Source of the DNA: Chlamydiia bacterium
Lineage (GTDB): Bacteria > Chlamydiota > Chlamydiia > Chlamydiales > Parachlamydiaceae
Assembly (NCBI GenBank): GCA_038257035.1
Contig: JBBSJT010000056.1
Span: 1-14,871 of the forward strand
Reading direction: 5' to 3'
DNA length: 14,871 nt
The notes beneath the pieces are model-generated. The model saw nothing but the letters and a program-made list of their open reading frames with translations, made no database searches and was not told the DNA's origin. A program made the position numbers and the translations under genes. Of this stretch, positions 3,168 through 14,746 are shown piece by piece. Each line of letters begins with the position of its first letter. The stretch's first letter is position 1.

Positions 3168-4271
3168 TTACACTTTTCCCATCTTTTTATATATTTTTCC
3201 CGGATATTCCTTTACGGCTTTTTTTAACATTAAACCCATTAATAAAACATTTAATTTCGTTACAGCTATTTTAGTATGAACGACTAATTCATCAATTGAA
3301 AATTCTTCATTTGGCATTTGATCAAATAAATTTTGTTCATCCAAAGAAAGAAGAGGCTTTTTTATATTCGTTTGTTCAAAAGGTTTTCTAAAATTAAAAG
3401 TTTCAAATTCAGCTAAAATGTCATCCGCATTTTCAACAAGTTTGGCCCTATTTTTTTTGATTAAAAAGTGGTTACCTTTGAAATTTTCATTGTCCGCTCT
3501 TCCGGGAATGGCAAACAATTTCTTCTTTTGCGATAATGCTTTTTCCATCGTGATCATCGCCCCACTTTTAATAGGGGCTTCAATCAATAATGTTCCAAGG
3601 CTCATTCCGCTAACAATTCTATTTCGTCTTGGAAAATTTTGACGCTCAGGGGGAGTGTTCATCGGAAATTCACTAATAACAGCCCCGGCTCCTTGAGTTA
3701 CAATCGAATCTACAAGTTTACTGTTTTCTGATGGATAAATATGCCGAAATCCTGACCCAATTACTGCAATCGTGCGTCCTTTTTGTAACGCTGCAAGGTG
3801 GGCTGCCGTATCAATTCCCCTTGCAAGACCGCTTATAATCGTAAAACCTTTTTCGGCAAGACTTGACGAAATGTGTTCTGCCATTTCAAGACCGTAGATG
3901 CTGGCTTGTCTTGTTCCAATAACAGCTATACTCATTTGATCATCAATTTTCAATTCACCTAAAGTATAGAGTAATAAGGGATAATCGTCAATTTCTAATA
4001 AATCTTTTGGATAATCCGGACTTGTATAAGGGATTATTTTTACGCCTAATTTTTTTGCAAAGTCTAAATTACTTTGCCAACTTTTATCATCTTGCCAAGC
4101 ATGAAAACCTTGACTCATTCGTTTTCCAAATCCCGGCATTTCTTCAATGATTTTCGGGTCTACATCTAATGCTTTTAAAGCTGAGCCAAAAGTATTAATT
4201 AATAATTTAATTTTTACAGGTCCAAGATAGGGGATACTTGAAAGAATGACTAGTGCTTCAAGTTCGCTCAA
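3168..4271 (-). CDS. dprA: DNA-processing protein DprA/Smf
   Basis: Motifs IAVIGTR, IISGLARGIDTAAH, FPRRNRIVSG and EAPIKSGAMIT, plus a C-terminal winged-helix-like tail. TTG start with GGGAGG upstream. Stop is 3 nt from the topA start, the classic dprA-topA operon. Confidence 0.97.
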   Translation of the reverse strand: MSELEALVILSSIPYLGPVKIKLLINTFGSALKALDVDPKIIEEMPGFGKRMSQGFHAWQDDKSWQSNLDFAKKLGVKIIPYTSPDYPKDLLEIDDYPLLLYTLGELKIDDQMSIAVIGTRQASIYGLEMAEHISSSLAEKGFTIISGLARGIDTAAHLAALQKGRTIAVIGSGFRHIYPSENSKLVDSIVTQGAGAVISEFPMNTPPERQNFPRRNRIVSGMSLGTLLIEAPIKSGAMITMEKALSQKKKLFAIPGRADNENFKGNHFLIKKNRAKLVENADDILAEFETFNFRKPFEQTNIKKPLLSLDEQNLFDQMPNEEFSIDELVVHTKIAVTKLNVLLMGLMLKKAVKEYPGKIYKKMGKV

Positions 4272-4380
4272 TTTTCCCTCCCCTTCGTCTAATTTTTTGT
4301 GCAGTCTAAGACGTTACACAATTCAAATAATAAATTCAACAATAAACATAGAGCGGCAAATGTTATAGCGTTTGTTTAGC

Positions 4381-4704
4381 TTTTTTTACCGCGAAGAGCC
4401 GTAGATTCCACCGTCTCGAATGCTCTTTTTACCGCGAAGACCGCGAAGAAAGACGCGAAGACCGCGAAGAAAGACGCGAAGGCACGCGAAGAAGCGCGCT
4501 AAAGCGCGGAGAAGAAGGCTATGCTAAAGCTATTAATAAAAGCCTCTTACTTAAAATTGTTTTTGACAAAACAATTTTACAAATCATCCTCTTTGCAAAT
4601 TGCAAAGAGGAATTTTTAAATCTTTCTTGCTGTTGTCTTCTCGCGCGCAAGCGCGCTTCTTCGCGTTTCTTCGCGTCTTTCTTCGCGCTCTTCGCGGTAA
4701 AAAA
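4381..4704. repeat. Long palindromic element A (CGCGAAG-type arms) with two internal hairpins; REPIN/MITE-like
   Basis: Left arm about 4426-4515 is an imperfect reverse complement of right arm about 4636-4704. An extra arm-end copy lies at 4382-4399. Internal perfect 12-bp hairpins at 4552-4579 and 4587-4611. Confidence 0.9.
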
Positions 4705-4742
4705 TGCAAAAAAAGACTATTGGCACTGTGAGAAAAATGGGG

Positions 4743-4776
4743 AAAAAAAAGACGGGGAACGAAAATGATCCCCGCC
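4743..4776 (-). terminator. Rho-independent terminator on the minus strand
   Basis: Minus strand reads GGCGGGGA-TCATTTTCGT-TCCCCGTC-TTTTTTTT: an 8-bp GC-rich stem (one G-U pair) plus a U8 tail, 23 nt after the stop at 4800. Confidence 0.8.
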
Positions 4777-4799
4777 TTCAATATTAATTCTTTCTTAAT

Positions 4800-5061
4800 T
4801 TAGAAAGAAACTGTGATTGTTCCTCGTATTTCTACAACGTCTTTATTTGTTGAGAAATTTAGAGAGAAAGAATCTCTAGTAAAATTTTTCGCTTTAACGA
4901 ACGCATTGTCAGCTGAAAAATTAACTTCTACAATAGAAGATAATGACTGACTTTTTAATTCGTCATAAGCTACCGAGCTGTAAATTGTGCTCAAGGTGTT
5001 GTCTCCATCCACCTTATTAAAAGGCGGCTAAAGAAAAAAACACTTACATGTTTTTTTTCAT
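4800..5061 (-). pseudogene. Probable degraded gene for a small secreted/outer-membrane protein
   Basis: ORF 4800-5012 ends in alternating hydrophobic residues and a terminal Phe (VVEIRGTITVSF) and has its own terminator. Upstream, ATG at 5061 reads MKKNM*VFFSLAAF**, signal-peptide-like but interrupted and in another frame. Confidence 0.4.
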
Positions 5062-5365
5062 TCTAATATTTAATCTCAAGGGCCAAAAAAAAATTCAACC
5101 GTTTGAGTTTCATTTCAACTTTAACTTTAATTATCCCAAAAAATGTTGTGGCTTCGAGCTTTAAAGTTTCTAAATTGCTTTAGAACCTTCTTTTATTGCC
5201 TTATGTCACCTCCCTATTGGCTCTGGCGTTCCACTGTTATTGGGTTTGCTTAACAAAAAGTTTAAAATATTTACTAAACTTTGAAATTTAAGCATAGTCT
5301 AGATCACAAGATATATTATGTAATATAGACTTATTTTGAATGTGTAGCATTTAAAAAAAATAACA

Positions 5366-6100
5366 TCAAGATTTTCTTAAGTTCTCTTTTCTTGTTTCAA
5401 TATAATTAGTTAACGAAATCTGTCCAATGTTAGAATAATCTACTAATTTTTGAAATGCTTCATTGTTTCTATTCGCAATTTTGTTTCCCCACTCATTCCA
5501 AGTTGCAAGCTCATCCTTTTCAAGTTTTAACTGTTGCTGTAACATTCCAATGCGTAAAAGATTCAGGGCAAACAATAATTCATCACTCTCTTTTGCAATG
5601 AGAGATTCTTTTAATTTCAAAGAATTTTGTAAAGCTTGTTCAAGTTTTGATTCTGCAATCAGTAAACTTGTTTTGGAGTAGTCGCTATATAGGGGTGCAT
5701 TTTCAGATTCTGTTCTTGAGATGGCATTCAAAGCAAAGGGAACAGCTTCTTGGATGTTACCTGTTGCAATTAAACGTCTTGCAATAAGAGCGTCATATTT
5801 TGCATGTAATTCAGGGTGTGCTTTTAAGCTTGTCTCAAGCTTTTGAAGTGTTTCTTGGATGGCACCTTGATTTTTTTCCGTCAGAAGTCGTTGATAATCA
5901 TTTTCAGCAGTGATAAAATCATGTTCAGATTTTACAATAGTGCCAAAGAGTACGCGGTAAACTATAAAAAAAAGAGCAACTAAACCAAAAAAGGCTATCA
6001 GAAGATTTTTTCCATTTGTTAAGATCCAATGAATAAAACGATTGTCTTCAAAATTTTCTTCAAATGATGATTCTACTCTAGCTTGGGGAATATTTTTCAT
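5366..6100 (-). CDS. Membrane-anchored alpha-helical (TPR/YfgM-like) hypothetical protein
   Basis: 244-aa ORF with one hydrophobic segment (LLIAFFGLVALFFIVY) near the N-terminus followed by amphipathic helical repeats. The family assignment is inference only. Confidence 0.75.
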   Translation of the reverse strand: MKNIPQARVESSFEENFEDNRFIHWILTNGKNLLIAFFGLVALFFIVYRVLFGTIVKSEHDFITAENDYQRLLTEKNQGAIQETLQKLETSLKAHPELHAKYDALIARRLIATGNIQEAVPFALNAISRTESENAPLYSDYSKTSLLIAESKLEQALQNSLKLKESLIAKESDELLFALNLLRIGMLQQQLKLEKDELATWNEWGNKIANRNNEAFQKLVDYSNIGQISLTNYIETRKENLRKS

Positions 6101-6191
6101 GGGATTACCAAATGTTAATTGTCAGGAATAAGCTATTATACTTAAGTAAAATTTAATGTCAGCTACAAAATGATTATTTTAAGGAAAAAAA

Positions 6192-7031
6192 ATGCACACG
6201 ACAAAAGAGCCAAATCAAGATCAAATTTTGAGCGTGAATAACGGTGTAGAAATCAAAGAAATTGAAATTATAAAAATTCAAGTTAACCCATTTCAGCCAA
6301 GAAAAACGTTTTCAACCCTAGAGCTCGAAGAATTGGCAGAGTCGATCCTTAGTGTCGGACTTATTCATCCGCCTGCTGTAAGGTGTTTAGGTAATGGGTT
6401 TTATGAAATTATTTCTGGTGAAAGGCGGTTTCGTGCATCAAAACTTGCCAATCTTACAAAAATTCCTGTAATTGTTCATTCAAGCTCAGATAAACTTTCC
6501 ATGGAAGCTGCCCTCATTGAAAATATTCAAAGGGTTGATTTAAACCCATTGGAAATCTCAAAAGCATTAAAAAGTTTGAGTATGGAATTTGGAATTGGTC
6601 AAGAAGAGCTCGGTAAACGCGTTGGAAAAAAACGTTCAACTGTGACTAATTATCTTCGGTTGCTAACATTACCAAAAAATATTCAAGACAGTGTGATGAC
6701 AGAAGCAATTTCTATGGGTCATGCAAAAGCGATTTTATCTTTGGAAAATTTCGATAAACAAAATCTTTTGCATGAATTAATTTTAAGAGATGATTTAAGC
6801 GTTCGGGAAGCAGAAGCTGCAGCTGTTCGTATTTCAGAAAAATCAAAAACAAAAAAGCTTGTTTATGTTTGCCGTGATTTTTTCTTAGAACAATTAGCAG
6901 AAAAAATTCAAAAGAAATTAGGAACTAAGGTTTTTATTCAAGGTAAGGGTAAAAAGGGGAGGATTATGATTGATTATTATAATCTGGATGATCTGGATCG
7001 GCTCCTCGCCCACTTCGGCGTGGACTCTTAG
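6192..7031 (+). CDS. parB: ParB/Spo0J chromosome partitioning protein
   Basis: NPFQPRK, Box II ISGERRFRA, ALIENIQRVDLNPLE, HTH (QEELGKRVGKKRSTVTNYLRLL), ISMGHAKAIL, and a C-terminal dimerisation segment KGRIMIDY. Confidence 0.97.
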   Translation: MHTTKEPNQDQILSVNNGVEIKEIEIIKIQVNPFQPRKTFSTLELEELAESILSVGLIHPPAVRCLGNGFYEIISGERRFRASKLANLTKIPVIVHSSSDKLSMEAALIENIQRVDLNPLEISKALKSLSMEFGIGQEELGKRVGKKRSTVTNYLRLLTLPKNIQDSVMTEAISMGHAKAILSLENFDKQNLLHELILRDDLSVREAEAAAVRISEKSKTKKLVYVCRDFFLEQLAEKIQKKLGTKVFIQGKGKKGRIMIDYYNLDDLDRLLAHFGVDS

Positions 7032-7040
7032 CGTCTACGT

Positions 7041-7467
7041 TTTTTTTTAACACAGAGAACACGAGAGGAGCAAATGAGAGAAGGAGATAGGTGAATGTGA
7101 GCAGAGCCTTTTGCATTATATCGCGTGGGATTTTTTTAACGCAAAGAAGCAACAAGAAGACGCAAAGGCGCAAAGAAAGCGCGCTTAAAGCGCGAGGAAG
7201 AGGAAGAAAAAGATTATCCACAAGCGCTCTCATCCATCTTTGCTAGAAGCAAAGATGGTCAGTTCAAAAATTATTTTTTAAATAATTTTAAATTGGTGAT
7301 GCCCTATTCACAGTTTTTTACTTTATTTTCGCGCACTTGAGCGCGCTTTCTTTGCGTCTTTGCGCCTTATGTTGCTTCTTTGCGTTGAAAAAATCACAAA
7401 TTTTTATAATAGATAAGTCTTTCTCCCTACCCTCATTTGCTACTCTGTGGTCTCGGTGTTAAAAAAC
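7041..7467. repeat. Outer palindromic element C (CACAGAG-type arms) enclosing element B
   Basis: 7043-7090 (TTTTTTAACACAGAGAACACGAGAGGAGCAAATGAGAGAAGGAGATAG) aligns with the reverse complement of 7419-7466 (TTTTTTAACACCGAGACCACAGAGTAGCAAATGAGGGTAGGGAGAAAG). Confidence 0.85.
7129..7395. repeat. Long palindromic element B (CGCAAAG-type arms) with two internal hairpins; homologous to element A
   Basis: Arms 7129-7195 and 7329-7395 are about 67-bp near-perfect inverted repeats. Internal hairpins at 7234-7258 (11 bp) and 7267-7289 (10 bp). Confidence 0.9.
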
Positions 7468-7481
7468 ATATTTTTAGGGAA

Positions 7482-7519
7482 AATAAAAGGCGTTCACTTT
7501 TTGGAGAACGCCTTTTATT
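7482..7519. terminator. Bidirectional intrinsic terminator between convergent parB and nrdJ
   Basis: AATAAAAGGCGTTC (7482-7495), 10-nt loop, GAACGCCTTTTATT (7506-7519): a perfect 14-bp inverted repeat with A/T tails on both sides, 20 nt from the nrdJ stop. Confidence 0.85.
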
Positions 7520-7539
7520 ATTTGTTGAATAACTATTGA

Positions 7540-9552
7540 TTAGCGGACAGGGCAGGCGCCGGTTGCGCAGGAGTCAGCCAATTCATCATCTCTCATTTCA
7601 ATGCCGCTATAGTCGATCTCTTTTAAGCGTGCCACATATTCATCATAAGCTGTTTTTGTAACAACTTCCTGAGGAAGATAAGCATAACCTAAATCTTCAG
7701 CATTTTTTGTCGGATCATTGCGATAGAGGAATGAAACGCCCACATAAGTTTCCCAATTTTCTTGCAACCAATCAATGATGGCAGGAATTTCAGAAGGATC
7801 GTACGAAATTGTGTTAGACACATTCTGCTCGCACCATGTTTCTTGTAAAAGACGATACCATTCAAGCTGATGAATTGCAGAATCTGTATTAACTTCAACT
7901 TCCTCTACTACACCATTTTTTCTTGTGACATTCATTCTTGTAAATGGAACATTGTCATATTTCACAGGAAAACAGACAAGTACAGATTCCGGCTCAAACG
8001 GTTTTTCAATTACAGAGTAACCTGCCACTTTAAATCTCTCGACTAATGGATCATGTTTTGAAAATGTCACATTGTTAAAAATGTATTTGCCAAGCGGTGC
8101 ATGAACGCCTTCCGGTACTTCACCCCATTTTTCCGTTCCCATGATTTTACTAAGTGTGCCGCTTGGTTTTACGCAAGTGACATTCTTTGGCAACGGAGAA
8201 TTTAATTCGTTTGCAATGCTGTAAGCTGCACTTACCGTGATATTGCGCATGCGTTTATAATCGTAGGCTGTAAGATCGGGTCTTGCACGTATACCGGTTA
8301 GGCCTACTCCGCAAAGGTGTAAGAAGCTATTGTTTAAGTGCCAAGCTTCCTGTAAAATTTCATCTCGTAAATTAACCATTGTTTGTCTGTAGTTCATTCT
8401 TCCTGCAAGGTAGAGTGCACGCTCAAGTCCTACTCGATCCCCTTTAAAGGCAAGAAGATTTACTTCTGTCAGATTACAAAAACTTTTATTTCCAAGAAGA
8501 ATTTCAACGCAAGGGTTACAACCCTTAAACCAAGGAGCACGTCTTTCAGCTTCTGCTGCATTGATCATTCCAGGTTCAGATCCGCCGGCATCAACCATAA
8601 TTTGAAAGAGGTTTTCAAGTTCTTCTTTGGATGGTTTTTTACGAAAGAGCAAACTATTATTCGATTGTTGGCGATGTGCATTGCCCTTTGTCCACCATTC
8701 TTTTTTAGCAGTTCCAAATTCTTCCCATTCAGGATCGCCATATTCAAATAATGCAATTTGAGCAGATCTTCTGCTGGATAAAATAGTTCCAAGCCAATTG
8801 ACGATGTCCAAAATGTCCATACGTGTTAAAAGCTGATCTGCTCTGTCAGATAAAATTTTAGCAATCGATTTAAAAGCTTTTGCAATTTGCTCATCCCCTG
8901 AAGAAATCCATCCGTAACCTTTGAGTCTTGTTCCTGCCGGTCTGATTTCTGAAAAATCGAGTTGAAGAGTTCTTGCCGGAAATTTTCCTGCCACTAACTT
9001 ACCAACAGCTTTTGCCCAGGCAATTGCGGAATCGCCCACTTTAATTGTCCAAACTTGAGTTTCCGGGCAATAAGTTTCAATATTTTGTTGAATTCCGCCT
9101 TTTTCTGTTCTGTTGGATCTGATAACACGAATTTCTTGAAGCGGACGACGAAAGCCGTTAAGTGTTCCTGTGATCGGTTTAAAACCAACACCACAGCCTT
9201 GAAGAAGCAGCCATAGAATATCAACAACATCATAAACTGTTTCAACATGAGTGTAGGAACAGTTAAACATGCTAGATTCTCTTGTGCGGCTAAGTTCTGT
9301 TCCGCCAAGCCATAAAGTTCTTCCTGCTGGTGCAACATAGCGACCAAGAATCAAAACCTTTAATTCCTCAAGTTCATGCTCTTCTCTATCATTTAATAAA
9401 CGGCCTAAAGCACGCTCCCAGAGCCAGCGTTGATGGAAAATAACACGTTCAACCACTTGGTCCCAAGATTCAAGTAGAGTATCCCCTTCTCTTACGGGGC
9501 GATGGTATGTGCGTAAGGATGTTGCCATAGCTCGAGATGTAGGTTTATTCAT
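7540..9552 (-). CDS. nrdJ: Class II (adenosylcobalamin-dependent) ribonucleotide reductase, monomeric RTPR/NrdJm type
   Basis: RTYHRP N-terminus, PAGRTLW, MFNCSY, finger-loop NPCVEI, FCNLTE, VKPSGTLS, and a C-terminal redox Cys pair CATGACPVR. No ATP-cone. GGAG RBS upstream. Confidence 0.93.
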   Translation of the reverse strand: MNKPTSRAMATSLRTYHRPVREGDTLLESWDQVVERVIFHQRWLWERALGRLLNDREEHELEELKVLILGRYVAPAGRTLWLGGTELSRTRESSMFNCSYTHVETVYDVVDILWLLLQGCGVGFKPITGTLNGFRRPLQEIRVIRSNRTEKGGIQQNIETYCPETQVWTIKVGDSAIAWAKAVGKLVAGKFPARTLQLDFSEIRPAGTRLKGYGWISSGDEQIAKAFKSIAKILSDRADQLLTRMDILDIVNWLGTILSSRRSAQIALFEYGDPEWEEFGTAKKEWWTKGNAHRQQSNNSLLFRKKPSKEELENLFQIMVDAGGSEPGMINAAEAERRAPWFKGCNPCVEILLGNKSFCNLTEVNLLAFKGDRVGLERALYLAGRMNYRQTMVNLRDEILQEAWHLNNSFLHLCGVGLTGIRARPDLTAYDYKRMRNITVSAAYSIANELNSPLPKNVTCVKPSGTLSKIMGTEKWGEVPEGVHAPLGKYIFNNVTFSKHDPLVERFKVAGYSVIEKPFEPESVLVCFPVKYDNVPFTRMNVTRKNGVVEEVEVNTDSAIHQLEWYRLLQETWCEQNVSNTISYDPSEIPAIIDWLQENWETYVGVSFLYRNDPTKNAEDLGYAYLPQEVVTKTAYDEYVARLKEIDYSGIEMRDDELADSCATGACPVR

Positions 9553-13924: not shown

Positions 13925-14746
13925 GTGTTTATAGTGAATCTCATTGGTCAAAGTATTTATTATGAACCTGTAATCCAAACAAAAAGCCCATGTCTTCTTA
14001 TTTTAGATTCCACCATACCCTATGAAATAGCATTGTGCATTTTTAAGCATTTGAACCATGCGGATTTAGCTTCTTCAACACTTGTAAGCAAAGATTGGAG
14101 TTTTGCAGCTTGCAGTCCCATGCTTTGGCAGGCGTTTGATTTACGTAAAATTTTTCCCTCGAGCATTTATCTTAATGAAGATTGGAAATCAGATTTTAAT
14201 TTCGAAGTAGAAACTAAACCTCTTAACAAGCGCTACGTCATTTCAATATTAAAGGCCCGCTGCCCATTTTCGACAAAAAAGCAAAAAGTTTTTCAAACAC
14301 ACACATTCCTGGAGGTACCAAAAGGAATGACTTTAGAGTATTTTGCAAATCCTGAATTTTTTATTTCGCATTTTCATTCCGATATTTTTCAAAAATATGG
14401 AAAAAATCAAATATCCAACACTCATTGCTTACTAATCACGAATAAAATCCTACCGACAACCCTTTCAAAAAAATTTACCGAACAAAAAAAAATAATTTCT
14501 AACTACCCGCTTTATAAAATACCAAGCTTTATTACAGCAATAGCTTTGAATATGGCAAGATTGATGAACACTAAGCATTATTATGCTTTTGTTGTATTAC
14601 ATCAGTCCCCAAGTTTTGCCGTCTTTTTAGATGCAAGATGGTGTCAAATTGAGGTAAACATCGGAAGAATTGCCCCTCCCATAGAGTTTGGTCTTAATAC
14701 AACGCATAAGGGCCGAGGCATCATCGCCGCCCGCGAATTCCACTAA
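13925..14746 (+). CDS. F-box domain protein (eukaryotic-like, candidate host-interaction effector)
   Basis: IPYEIALCIFKHLNHADLASSTLVSKDWSFAACSPMLW matches the F-box pattern (LPxEIxxxIFxxLxxxDLxxxxxVxKxW). The C-terminal domain is not assigned. The exact start (GTG 13925 or 13934) is uncertain. Confidence 0.8.
   Translation: MFIVNLIGQSIYYEPVIQTKSPCLLILDSTIPYEIALCIFKHLNHADLASSTLVSKDWSFAACSPMLWQAFDLRKIFPSSIYLNEDWKSDFNFEVETKPLNKRYVISILKARCPFSTKKQKVFQTHTFLEVPKGMTLEYFANPEFFISHFHSDIFQKYGKNQISNTHCLLITNKILPTTLSKKFTEQKKIISNYPLYKIPSFITAIALNMARLMNTKHYYAFVVLHQSPSFAVFLDARWCQIEVNIGRIAPPIEFGLNTTHKGRGIIAAREFH

Follow-up and report, generated by a model that had tools for sequence, protein, structure and literature searches.

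In REPIN/RAYT systems, as the available portions of the literature describe them, many gene-less intergenic copies of two inverted arms (10.1101/2022.05.22.493013, PMC8266576, PMC3733652) accompany one or a few helper genes, which have these repeats on both sides; a single genome holds several repeat/enzyme pairs, and enzymes and repeats co-vary. We find the same layout in a family of intergenic hairpins in a Chlamydiia bacterium, represented by two elements, A (positions 4426–4704, 279 bp) and B (7129–7395, 267 bp, nested in a shell, C, at 7040–7467), in a contig of 14,871 nucleotides (nt), here called the window. An earlier sequence-only reading of the window had placed both elements correctly, at about 270–280 bp each. 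RAREFAN, according to the accessible part of its description, uses 130 bp between REPIN seeds (10.1101/2022.05.22.493013), a spacing that shorter copies of the family respect and A and B exceed. The family works like REPIN/RAYT in layout and, with its closely spaced inverted pairs in many copies, resembles REPINs, but it lies outside that group on enzyme and tag, having no cognate Y1 gene. Its helper is a protein of 125–135 amino acids (aa) with a predicted PD-(D/E)XK fold rather than an HUH tyrosine transposase, and its arms are heptamer arrays behind a T-run (T-run-A[AC]-CRCNRAG), with neither of the GTAG and CGTC tags described for REPs (repetitive extragenic palindromes). In contrast to REPINs as described, the ends are layered and mosaic and the cores exchangeable.

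Miniature inverted-repeat transposable elements (MITEs) of the IS630/Tc1-mariner type, such as Correia and RUP, are non-coding, 100–400 bp long, have inverted ends and possibly a TA junction. The present repeats share their size, the non-coding DNA within inverted repeats and a possible TA at the junction, but no DDE transposase was found between the arms (the one long A-armed copy holds a GxxExxY gene), the boundaries vary and the arms are internally repetitive mosaics. TIRtrons likewise have long terminal inverted repeats (TIRs) around a small gene, together with gene-less TIR families, but their enzymes, the TIRYTs, are tyrosine transposases; REPs of the CGTC type have no known enzyme in the accessible part of the same source and carry a different tag (PMC3733652). 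The intervening sequences (IVSs) of 23S rRNA that contain a four-helix-bundle open reading frame (ORF) also place a small ORF within a long stem (PMC4990558, in the portion available). In contrast, the copies described here are intergenic, those of the window lying between protein genes, and show no RNA-type pairing bias, and the single PF05635 gene of the genome (contig C166, 521–802, a short contig, between rimM-like and methyltransferase-like genes by eye) has no heptamer arms. We found no description of GxxExxY genes with heptamer arms or gene-less hairpins in the literature searched, from which supplements and most subscription journals were absent, and in the accessible part of a paper that names GxxExxY the term serves solely as an annotation; the repeat-and-nuclease selfish DNA system is apparently undescribed.

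A and B belong to a real, abundant and polymorphic family of more than 100 hairpin repeats. The end motif T4+[AT]?A[AC]CRC[ACG]RAG has 351 matches in the genome to which the window belongs (G000; 2.37 Mb in 210 contigs, 95.8% complete, the window being contig C56), compared with 8 in a reversed control. Naive pairing of these ends gives 122 pairs, mostly 65–340 bp long, of which 109 agree in heptamer between their two ends (79 with CGCGAAG and 20 with CGCAAAG among them); a further 107 ends are unpaired, many of them outer layers. The 107 same-heptamer pairs shorter than 400 bp span 20.4 kb and overlap crude ORF calls in seven cases, and just two elements lie near tRNA genes, which gives no indication of tRNA-linked insertion. 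The further genomic copies that the sequence-only reading had proposed to look for are thus present. Its consensus, CRCRRAG, does not accommodate CACCGAG and is corrected to CRCNRAG. On two contigs, C60 (4194–4806) and C34 (9353–10526), CACAGAG/CACCGAG ends surround a block with a B-type hairpin, accompanied on C60 by a gene fragment and on C34 by a 160-aa ORF and other repeats; these may be cases of cargo capture or of chance pairing.

The sole long CGCGAAG pair in the genome (contig C7, 933–1581) encloses an intact GxxExxY ORF. A second GxxExxY gene, on contig C17, is preceded by a decayed CGCAAAG end and directly followed by a B-type hairpin. The sequence-only reading had suggested GxxExxY, RAYT/TnpA-Y1 or four-helix-bundle genes as possible cargo; the arms flank the first of these, and Y1/RAYT and four-helix-bundle genes were rejected as partners, with no heptamer arrays beside them in the genome. 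The C7 and C17 proteins, 46% identical to each other, are the only two PF13366 matches in the genome and members of the GxxExxY/PDDEXK_3 family (138 and 141 bits against a cut-off of 35 for TIGR04256; PF13366 above cut-off). Among 41 sequences the invariant columns include G32, G34, E37, Y40, D76, E86, K88, Q100 and Y104, and the predicted active site (D76, E86-x-K88, Q100xxxY104) is intact in both proteins. An alignment-based structure model (predicted local distance difference test score, pLDDT, of 92, against 46 for single-sequence prediction) is closest in fold to lambda exonuclease, AdnAB, Cas4 and restriction enzymes, the best match by Z reaching 7.7 with a root-mean-square deviation of 2.9 over 94 aligned residues; a sequence search of the PDB gave 0 matches. 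Fold and residues suggest that both proteins are PD-(D/E)XK-type nucleases. The function of PF13366 is listed as unknown, with multiple transfers noted, in the accessible part of PMC3424549.

The arms follow the protein. We collected GxxExxY loci by protein only: from 141 loci, 126 distinct sequences with a length of 95 aa or more were retained. This set is biased, with 80 loci stemming from the C17 query. At least two inward-facing heptamers stand on each side in 82 of the 120 loci with full flanks, and outward-facing ones in 18. On a quick, partly unresolved protein tree, arm-class labels need 37 changes, compared with 64.7 when shuffled; a branch with support 92 separates the three CGCGAAG loci from the rest, and 16 of the 20 rows in the C17 clade have CGCAAAG arms. 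With 20 loci added the set comprised 146 distinct sequences, and leaving out 19 without CRCNRAG arms gave 127. The nearest protein neighbour had the same arm class in 115 of these (chance 61), in 102 for neighbours below 70% identity and in 83 below 62%. The arm type of A matches the C7 clade and that of B the C17 clade. The sequence-only reading had supposed that cognate enzymes encoded elsewhere may read the subtypes; arm subtype does match protein clade, and the enzymes may read the arms.

Repeats and proteins also coincide across the phylum. At least four ends occur in 28 of 65 genomes with PF13366 but in 3 of 134 without it (199 other genomes, G045 left out), and all 12 genomes with at least 11 ends carry PF13366; kin genomes in these counts are not independent. 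Genome G406 combines a C7-clade gene with 14 CGCGAAG ends, and G145 has 183 ends, none CGCGAAG and, among the matches listed, mostly of the CACAGAG/CACCGAG type. One relative of the C7 protein occurs in genome_contigs and none in viral_contigs; the four viral loci with CGCGAAG ends have no visible GxxExxY cargo.

Several GxxExxY loci depart from the simple cassette. At L013, L014, L035 and L041 an arm, in some cases together with the gene start, is duplicated in tandem beside a full cassette, which looks like abortive or repeated insertion into self. A divergent group with the motif G[ASPTIC]G[FY]LE (L036, L039, L215, L216, L223, L225, L228, L229, L231) has no CRCNRAG arms; the two loci inspected carry other short repeats, AAGAACGAT and CAGGATA. 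Genomes G267 and G391 contain at least 10 near-identical GxxExxY copies each (L132, 427–1863, and L133), and in either genome the single copy inspected faces a DDE transposase head to head and has no upstream arm, which suggests capture by an insertion sequence.

Element A occupies a variable block upstream of dprA (3168–4271, minus strand; PF02481). The whole block, A with its outer layers, extends over 4351–4740: contigs from two sequencing runs, X2 and X4, which belong to two studies, align to the window up to 4350 and again from 4741. Outside A lie a partial end, T7-AC-CGCGAAG (4381–4396, plus strand; from repeat and end-motif scans), of which a similar layer exists on contig C57, and TATAGCGTT (4364–4372, plus strand; from the sequence and position table), the local copy of a degenerate motif, about TATACCGYT, found some 10–20 nt outside the T-run at most CGCGAAG ends. 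The left arm (4426–4508, plus strand) comprises T5-AC, six CGCGAAG units spaced by 9–12 nt and then AAGCGCGCTAAAGCGCG, and holds a 21-nt tandem duplication; the right arm (4642–4704, minus strand) has four CGCGAAG units and an A-run at its end. Between them, on the plus strand, are an AT-rich core hairpin 1 (4552–4579; from folding and core search) and core hairpin 2 (4587–4611), composed of TCCTCTTTGC, a loop and GCAAAGAGGA, with compensatory changes across genomic copies. Hairpin 2 resembles two outward-facing CGCAAAG-type half sites, like a junction of joined ends; this likeness is speculative.

B and C lie between the convergent genes parB (6192–7031, plus strand; PF02195, PF17762) and the B12-dependent ribonucleoside-triphosphate reductase gene (RTPR; 7540–9552, minus strand; TIGR02505). 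The left arm of C (7040–7121, plus strand), T9-AA-CACAGAG with a purine-rich tail, begins 8 nt after the parB stop codon and is retained in runs X2 and X4; the right arm (7432–7467, minus strand) contains CACCGAG and CACAGAG. Within this shell, the left arm of B (7131–7195, plus strand) has T7-AA-CGCAAAG, three units in all, followed by AAGCGCGCTTAAAGCGCG, and the right arm spans 7329–7395 on the minus strand. The core of B (7232–7292, minus strand) is that of A in reverse orientation (nhmmer E 9.6e-07, and alignment), so the shared twin-hairpin core of the sequence-only reading stands. Its third arm type, C, is present as well, as a shell around B and not as a separate element. The arm length of 65–70 bp given there does not fit A, whose left arm with its duplication measures about 83 nt and whose right arm about 63 nt, and the heptamer spacing of 9–12 nt holds in A but not in B (8 and 20–21 nt). 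Arm complementarity is 89–93% in A and 91–93% in B, and folding as single-stranded DNA gives z = −13.0 for 4420–4710 (A; 0 of 200 shuffles as good) and −16.0 for 7030–7480 (B and C together; 0 of 100).

Both sites are empty in congeners, as the earlier reading had proposed to check. The gap between parB and RTPR measures about 15 nt in G001, compared with 508 nt in the window; no element stands upstream of dprA in G002 or G001, and neither genome has CGCGAAG ends. Runs X2 and X4 contain long contigs with 4–8% mismatches to the window (about 94% identity); among small-share runs the comparison covered X2, X4 and X6, and run X1, possibly the source sample itself, does not count as independent of the window. 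One 11-kb X4 contig aligns over 4866–7121, 7432–7466 and 7481–8997, with 375 letters between 7121 and 7481. The B block (7122–7431) fails to align there at 85% while the C arms are kept, so that in this population the C shell persists around a different interior. Among the pieces listed, an X2 contig that equals the dprA contig in depth contains core hairpin 2, which suggests that a different version of the element may occupy site A there. In genus g71, one site is without an element in G129 but carries CACAGAG elements, different from each other, in G098 and G191; these relatives are about 70% identical, a distance at which insertion boundaries are unreadable.

The arms are mosaic. An arm resembles its own partner more than a random arm (0 of 10,000 permutations as high), and the own partner is the best-matching arm in 9 of 71 elements. 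The 3-nt linker is identical on both sides in 32 of 72 elements (16 expected) and the arm subtype equal in 40 of 72 (33 expected). The earlier statement that both arms changed together thus holds for the heptamer class, in the 109 naive pairs given above, but only loosely in detail. The ends are similarly ragged, with a degenerate ACCG motif 11–14 nt outside the T-run and family likeness that extends past the ends: for 100 of 143 ends the best match of the outer 18 nt to another locus is 14–17 nt, compared with at most 13 for control T-runs, and outward sharing ranges from less than 5 to about 48 nt (mode 15–19). The two flanks of an element also share an inverted repeat, to a degree that none of 300 re-pairings reached. 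The core occurs in 34 copies, 26 in CGCGAAG, 5 in CGCAGAG and 3 in CGCAAAG arms; the core family has 31 members, outside which most interiors of A-type copies are unique. Five other repeat-rich genomes have 1–11 matches each to the hairpin 2 pattern, no sign of an expanded core. A fold-back origin of the unique interiors found no support (own partner best in 3 of 42, with 3091 of 10,000 permutations as high; the anchoring was rough). C may tend to lie outermost in nested cases (4 versus 0, p 0.125).

On balance, we lean towards the view that A, B and C carry no gene of their own and belong to a REPIN/RAYT-like selfish repeat family, which cognate GxxExxY nucleases serve by cutting and host recombination by copying arms and cores. 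That the nucleases bind and cut, and that the elements move, is proposed here from comparison of sequences and from a structure model. Each nuclease clade would bind its own heptamer array, the C7 clade CGCGAAG, the C17 clade CGCAAAG and a third clade CACAGAG/CACCGAG, and would cut hydrolytically near the T-run. Enzymes of the PD-(D/E)XK fold hydrolyse DNA without a covalent intermediate. Since the fold offers no strand-transfer nucleophile, repair of the break from another copy would fall to host recombination, which may copy arms, cores and variable lengths of flank. Such cut-and-repair copying would account for the mosaic arms, the shared cores, the ragged layered ends, the apparent lack of target duplication and the nesting or replacement within older shells. 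New sites would probably be gained by cuts in degenerate end-like sequence just downstream of genes. A broader idea, which we put forward tentatively, is that small heptamer-tuned PD-(D/E)XK nucleases, together with gene-less hairpins that they spread by cut-and-repair copying and not by transposition, constitute mobile DNA of a new class; several enzyme/arm pairs would compete for shared intergenic sites and displace one another there.

Alternatively, though in our view this is unlikely, a known transposase (Y1/RAYT or DDE) acting from another locus mobilises the repeats, which would then be ordinary MITEs or REPINs that have captured GxxExxY as cargo. The genome does contain nine PF01797 matches at seven Y1/RAYT-like loci (C29, 8845–9749; C119; C105; C7, 10608; C25; C48; C68), the REP next to the Y1 gene on C29 terminates in T-run-ACCGCGGAG, a single base off the A end, all 72 pairs of CGCGAAG ends start with TTTACC, compatible with a TA-type junction, and a DDE transposase neighbours the multicopy GxxExxY gene of G267. 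However, heptamer arrays are absent from all seven Y1 loci, with no more than one inward heptamer on either side, and several of these loci have palindromes of their own. Nor do element flanks show an excess of direct repeats (70 elements; 147 of 300 re-pairings as high), a test whose reach does not extend to a 2-bp TA duplication; the REPIN/MITE-like label of the sequence-only reading accordingly fits the many inverted pairs and not MITE-like fixed ends, given the variable boundaries and the absence of such a duplication signal. Translation of the long paired copies yielded GxxExxY at C7, and the other copies contained no ORF that looked transposase-like by eye, no genome-wide search for DDE families having been made. 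Moreover, cargo capture predicts neither gene-less copies that match the resident clade nor the co-occurrence of ends with PF13366.

A little less likely still is a domesticated role, in which the repeats serve the host as protein-binding or mRNA-stabilising sites after genes, GxxExxY binds or processes them on the host's behalf and passive recombination spreads them. By crude ORF calls, the 89 elements with genes called on both sides lie in 31 convergent, 46 tandem and 12 divergent gaps, compared with 169, 482 and 216 background gaps, a preference for convergent gaps (31/89 versus 169/867, chi-square p 0.0004), and they lie nearer to gene 3' ends (median 56 nt versus 118.5 nt); heptamers, too, stay fixed while linkers and interiors decay. 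The same position bias is, however, also expected from selection against insertion into promoters and genes, the sites are not conserved in congeners, and genomes in the phylum sample carry between 0 and 252 copies, G002 of the same genus giving no match. Least probable is that the elements act as RNA, as structured RNAs or hairpins cut from transcripts like the 23S rRNA IVSs: the stems are long and stable, core hairpin 2 has compensatory pairs (pairs 6–9, 123 of 132 cells Watson-Crick versus 97.8 shuffled, 0 of 10,000 shuffles as high; 33 of 34 copies parsed, kinship among them inflating the score) and arm mismatches oriented by the core are 53 G-U to 34 A-C (p 0.053), but G-U is not in excess along transcription (78 versus 90, p 0.40), which leaves the structured-RNA alternative of the sequence-only reading unsupported, the core is mixed in orientation relative to flanking genes, its Watson-Crick covariation fits DNA equally, the T-runs precede the stem on both strands and so are not intrinsic terminators, and the copies are intergenic, with two weak Rfam matches in the window (E 0.087 and 0.98), none on A, B or C, in keeping with the novelty first proposed.

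Several observations weigh against the cognate-nuclease reading that we favour. The fold matches are weak (best Foldseek E 3.7e-3), and the best Z lies within the range of common folds. Mosaicism could also arise from old age and ordinary RecA exchange between repeats, and non-core interiors are self-complementary no more than chance. The CGCGAAG clade has just three members in the locus set, CGCAAAG needs 16 changes on the quick, partly unresolved tree, 19 of the 146 GxxExxY loci lack CRCNRAG arms and 37 of the 65 PF13366 genomes have fewer than four ends. In G000 itself, about 70 CACAGAG/CACCGAG ends stand without a gene of that clade among its two PF13366 matches, in an assembly 95.8% complete. 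Because arms and gene are linked in one cassette, arms could track the protein tree by co-descent alone, and since the gene is amplified next to a DDE transposase in G267 and G391, GxxExxY genes can also hitch-hike.

The remaining genes of the window include topA with a SWIB domain, an M16 peptidase and an F-box protein (13925–14746, plus strand; Pfam) of a sort typical for environmental chlamydiae, alongside dprA, parB and RTPR (Pfam/NCBIfam). Together with a relative labelled Chlamydiota, this gene set indicates an environmental chlamydia. A Pfam scan of the 10 main ORFs matched no transposase families, in line with the sequence-only reading. Close to A, a 70-aa ORF with a GTG start (4800–5012, minus strand) has no Pfam or NCBIfam match and no usable ESM Atlas match; it is probably a real small gene because about 55% identity is kept in G001 and G002. 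A weak Rfam L20_leader match at 4738–4849 (minus strand; 27 bits against a gathering threshold of 58.7) is probably due to chance.

If the proposed pairing of nuclease and arm is correct, a widespread protein family listed as unknown would acquire both a function and a DNA substrate, and repeat systems of the REPIN/RAYT kind would gain a second enzyme class. G000 is well suited to testing this, with two divergent enzymes (46% identical) and some 100 copies of their two arm classes. Nucleases of 125–135 aa with differing 7-base specificities would also have practical interest.

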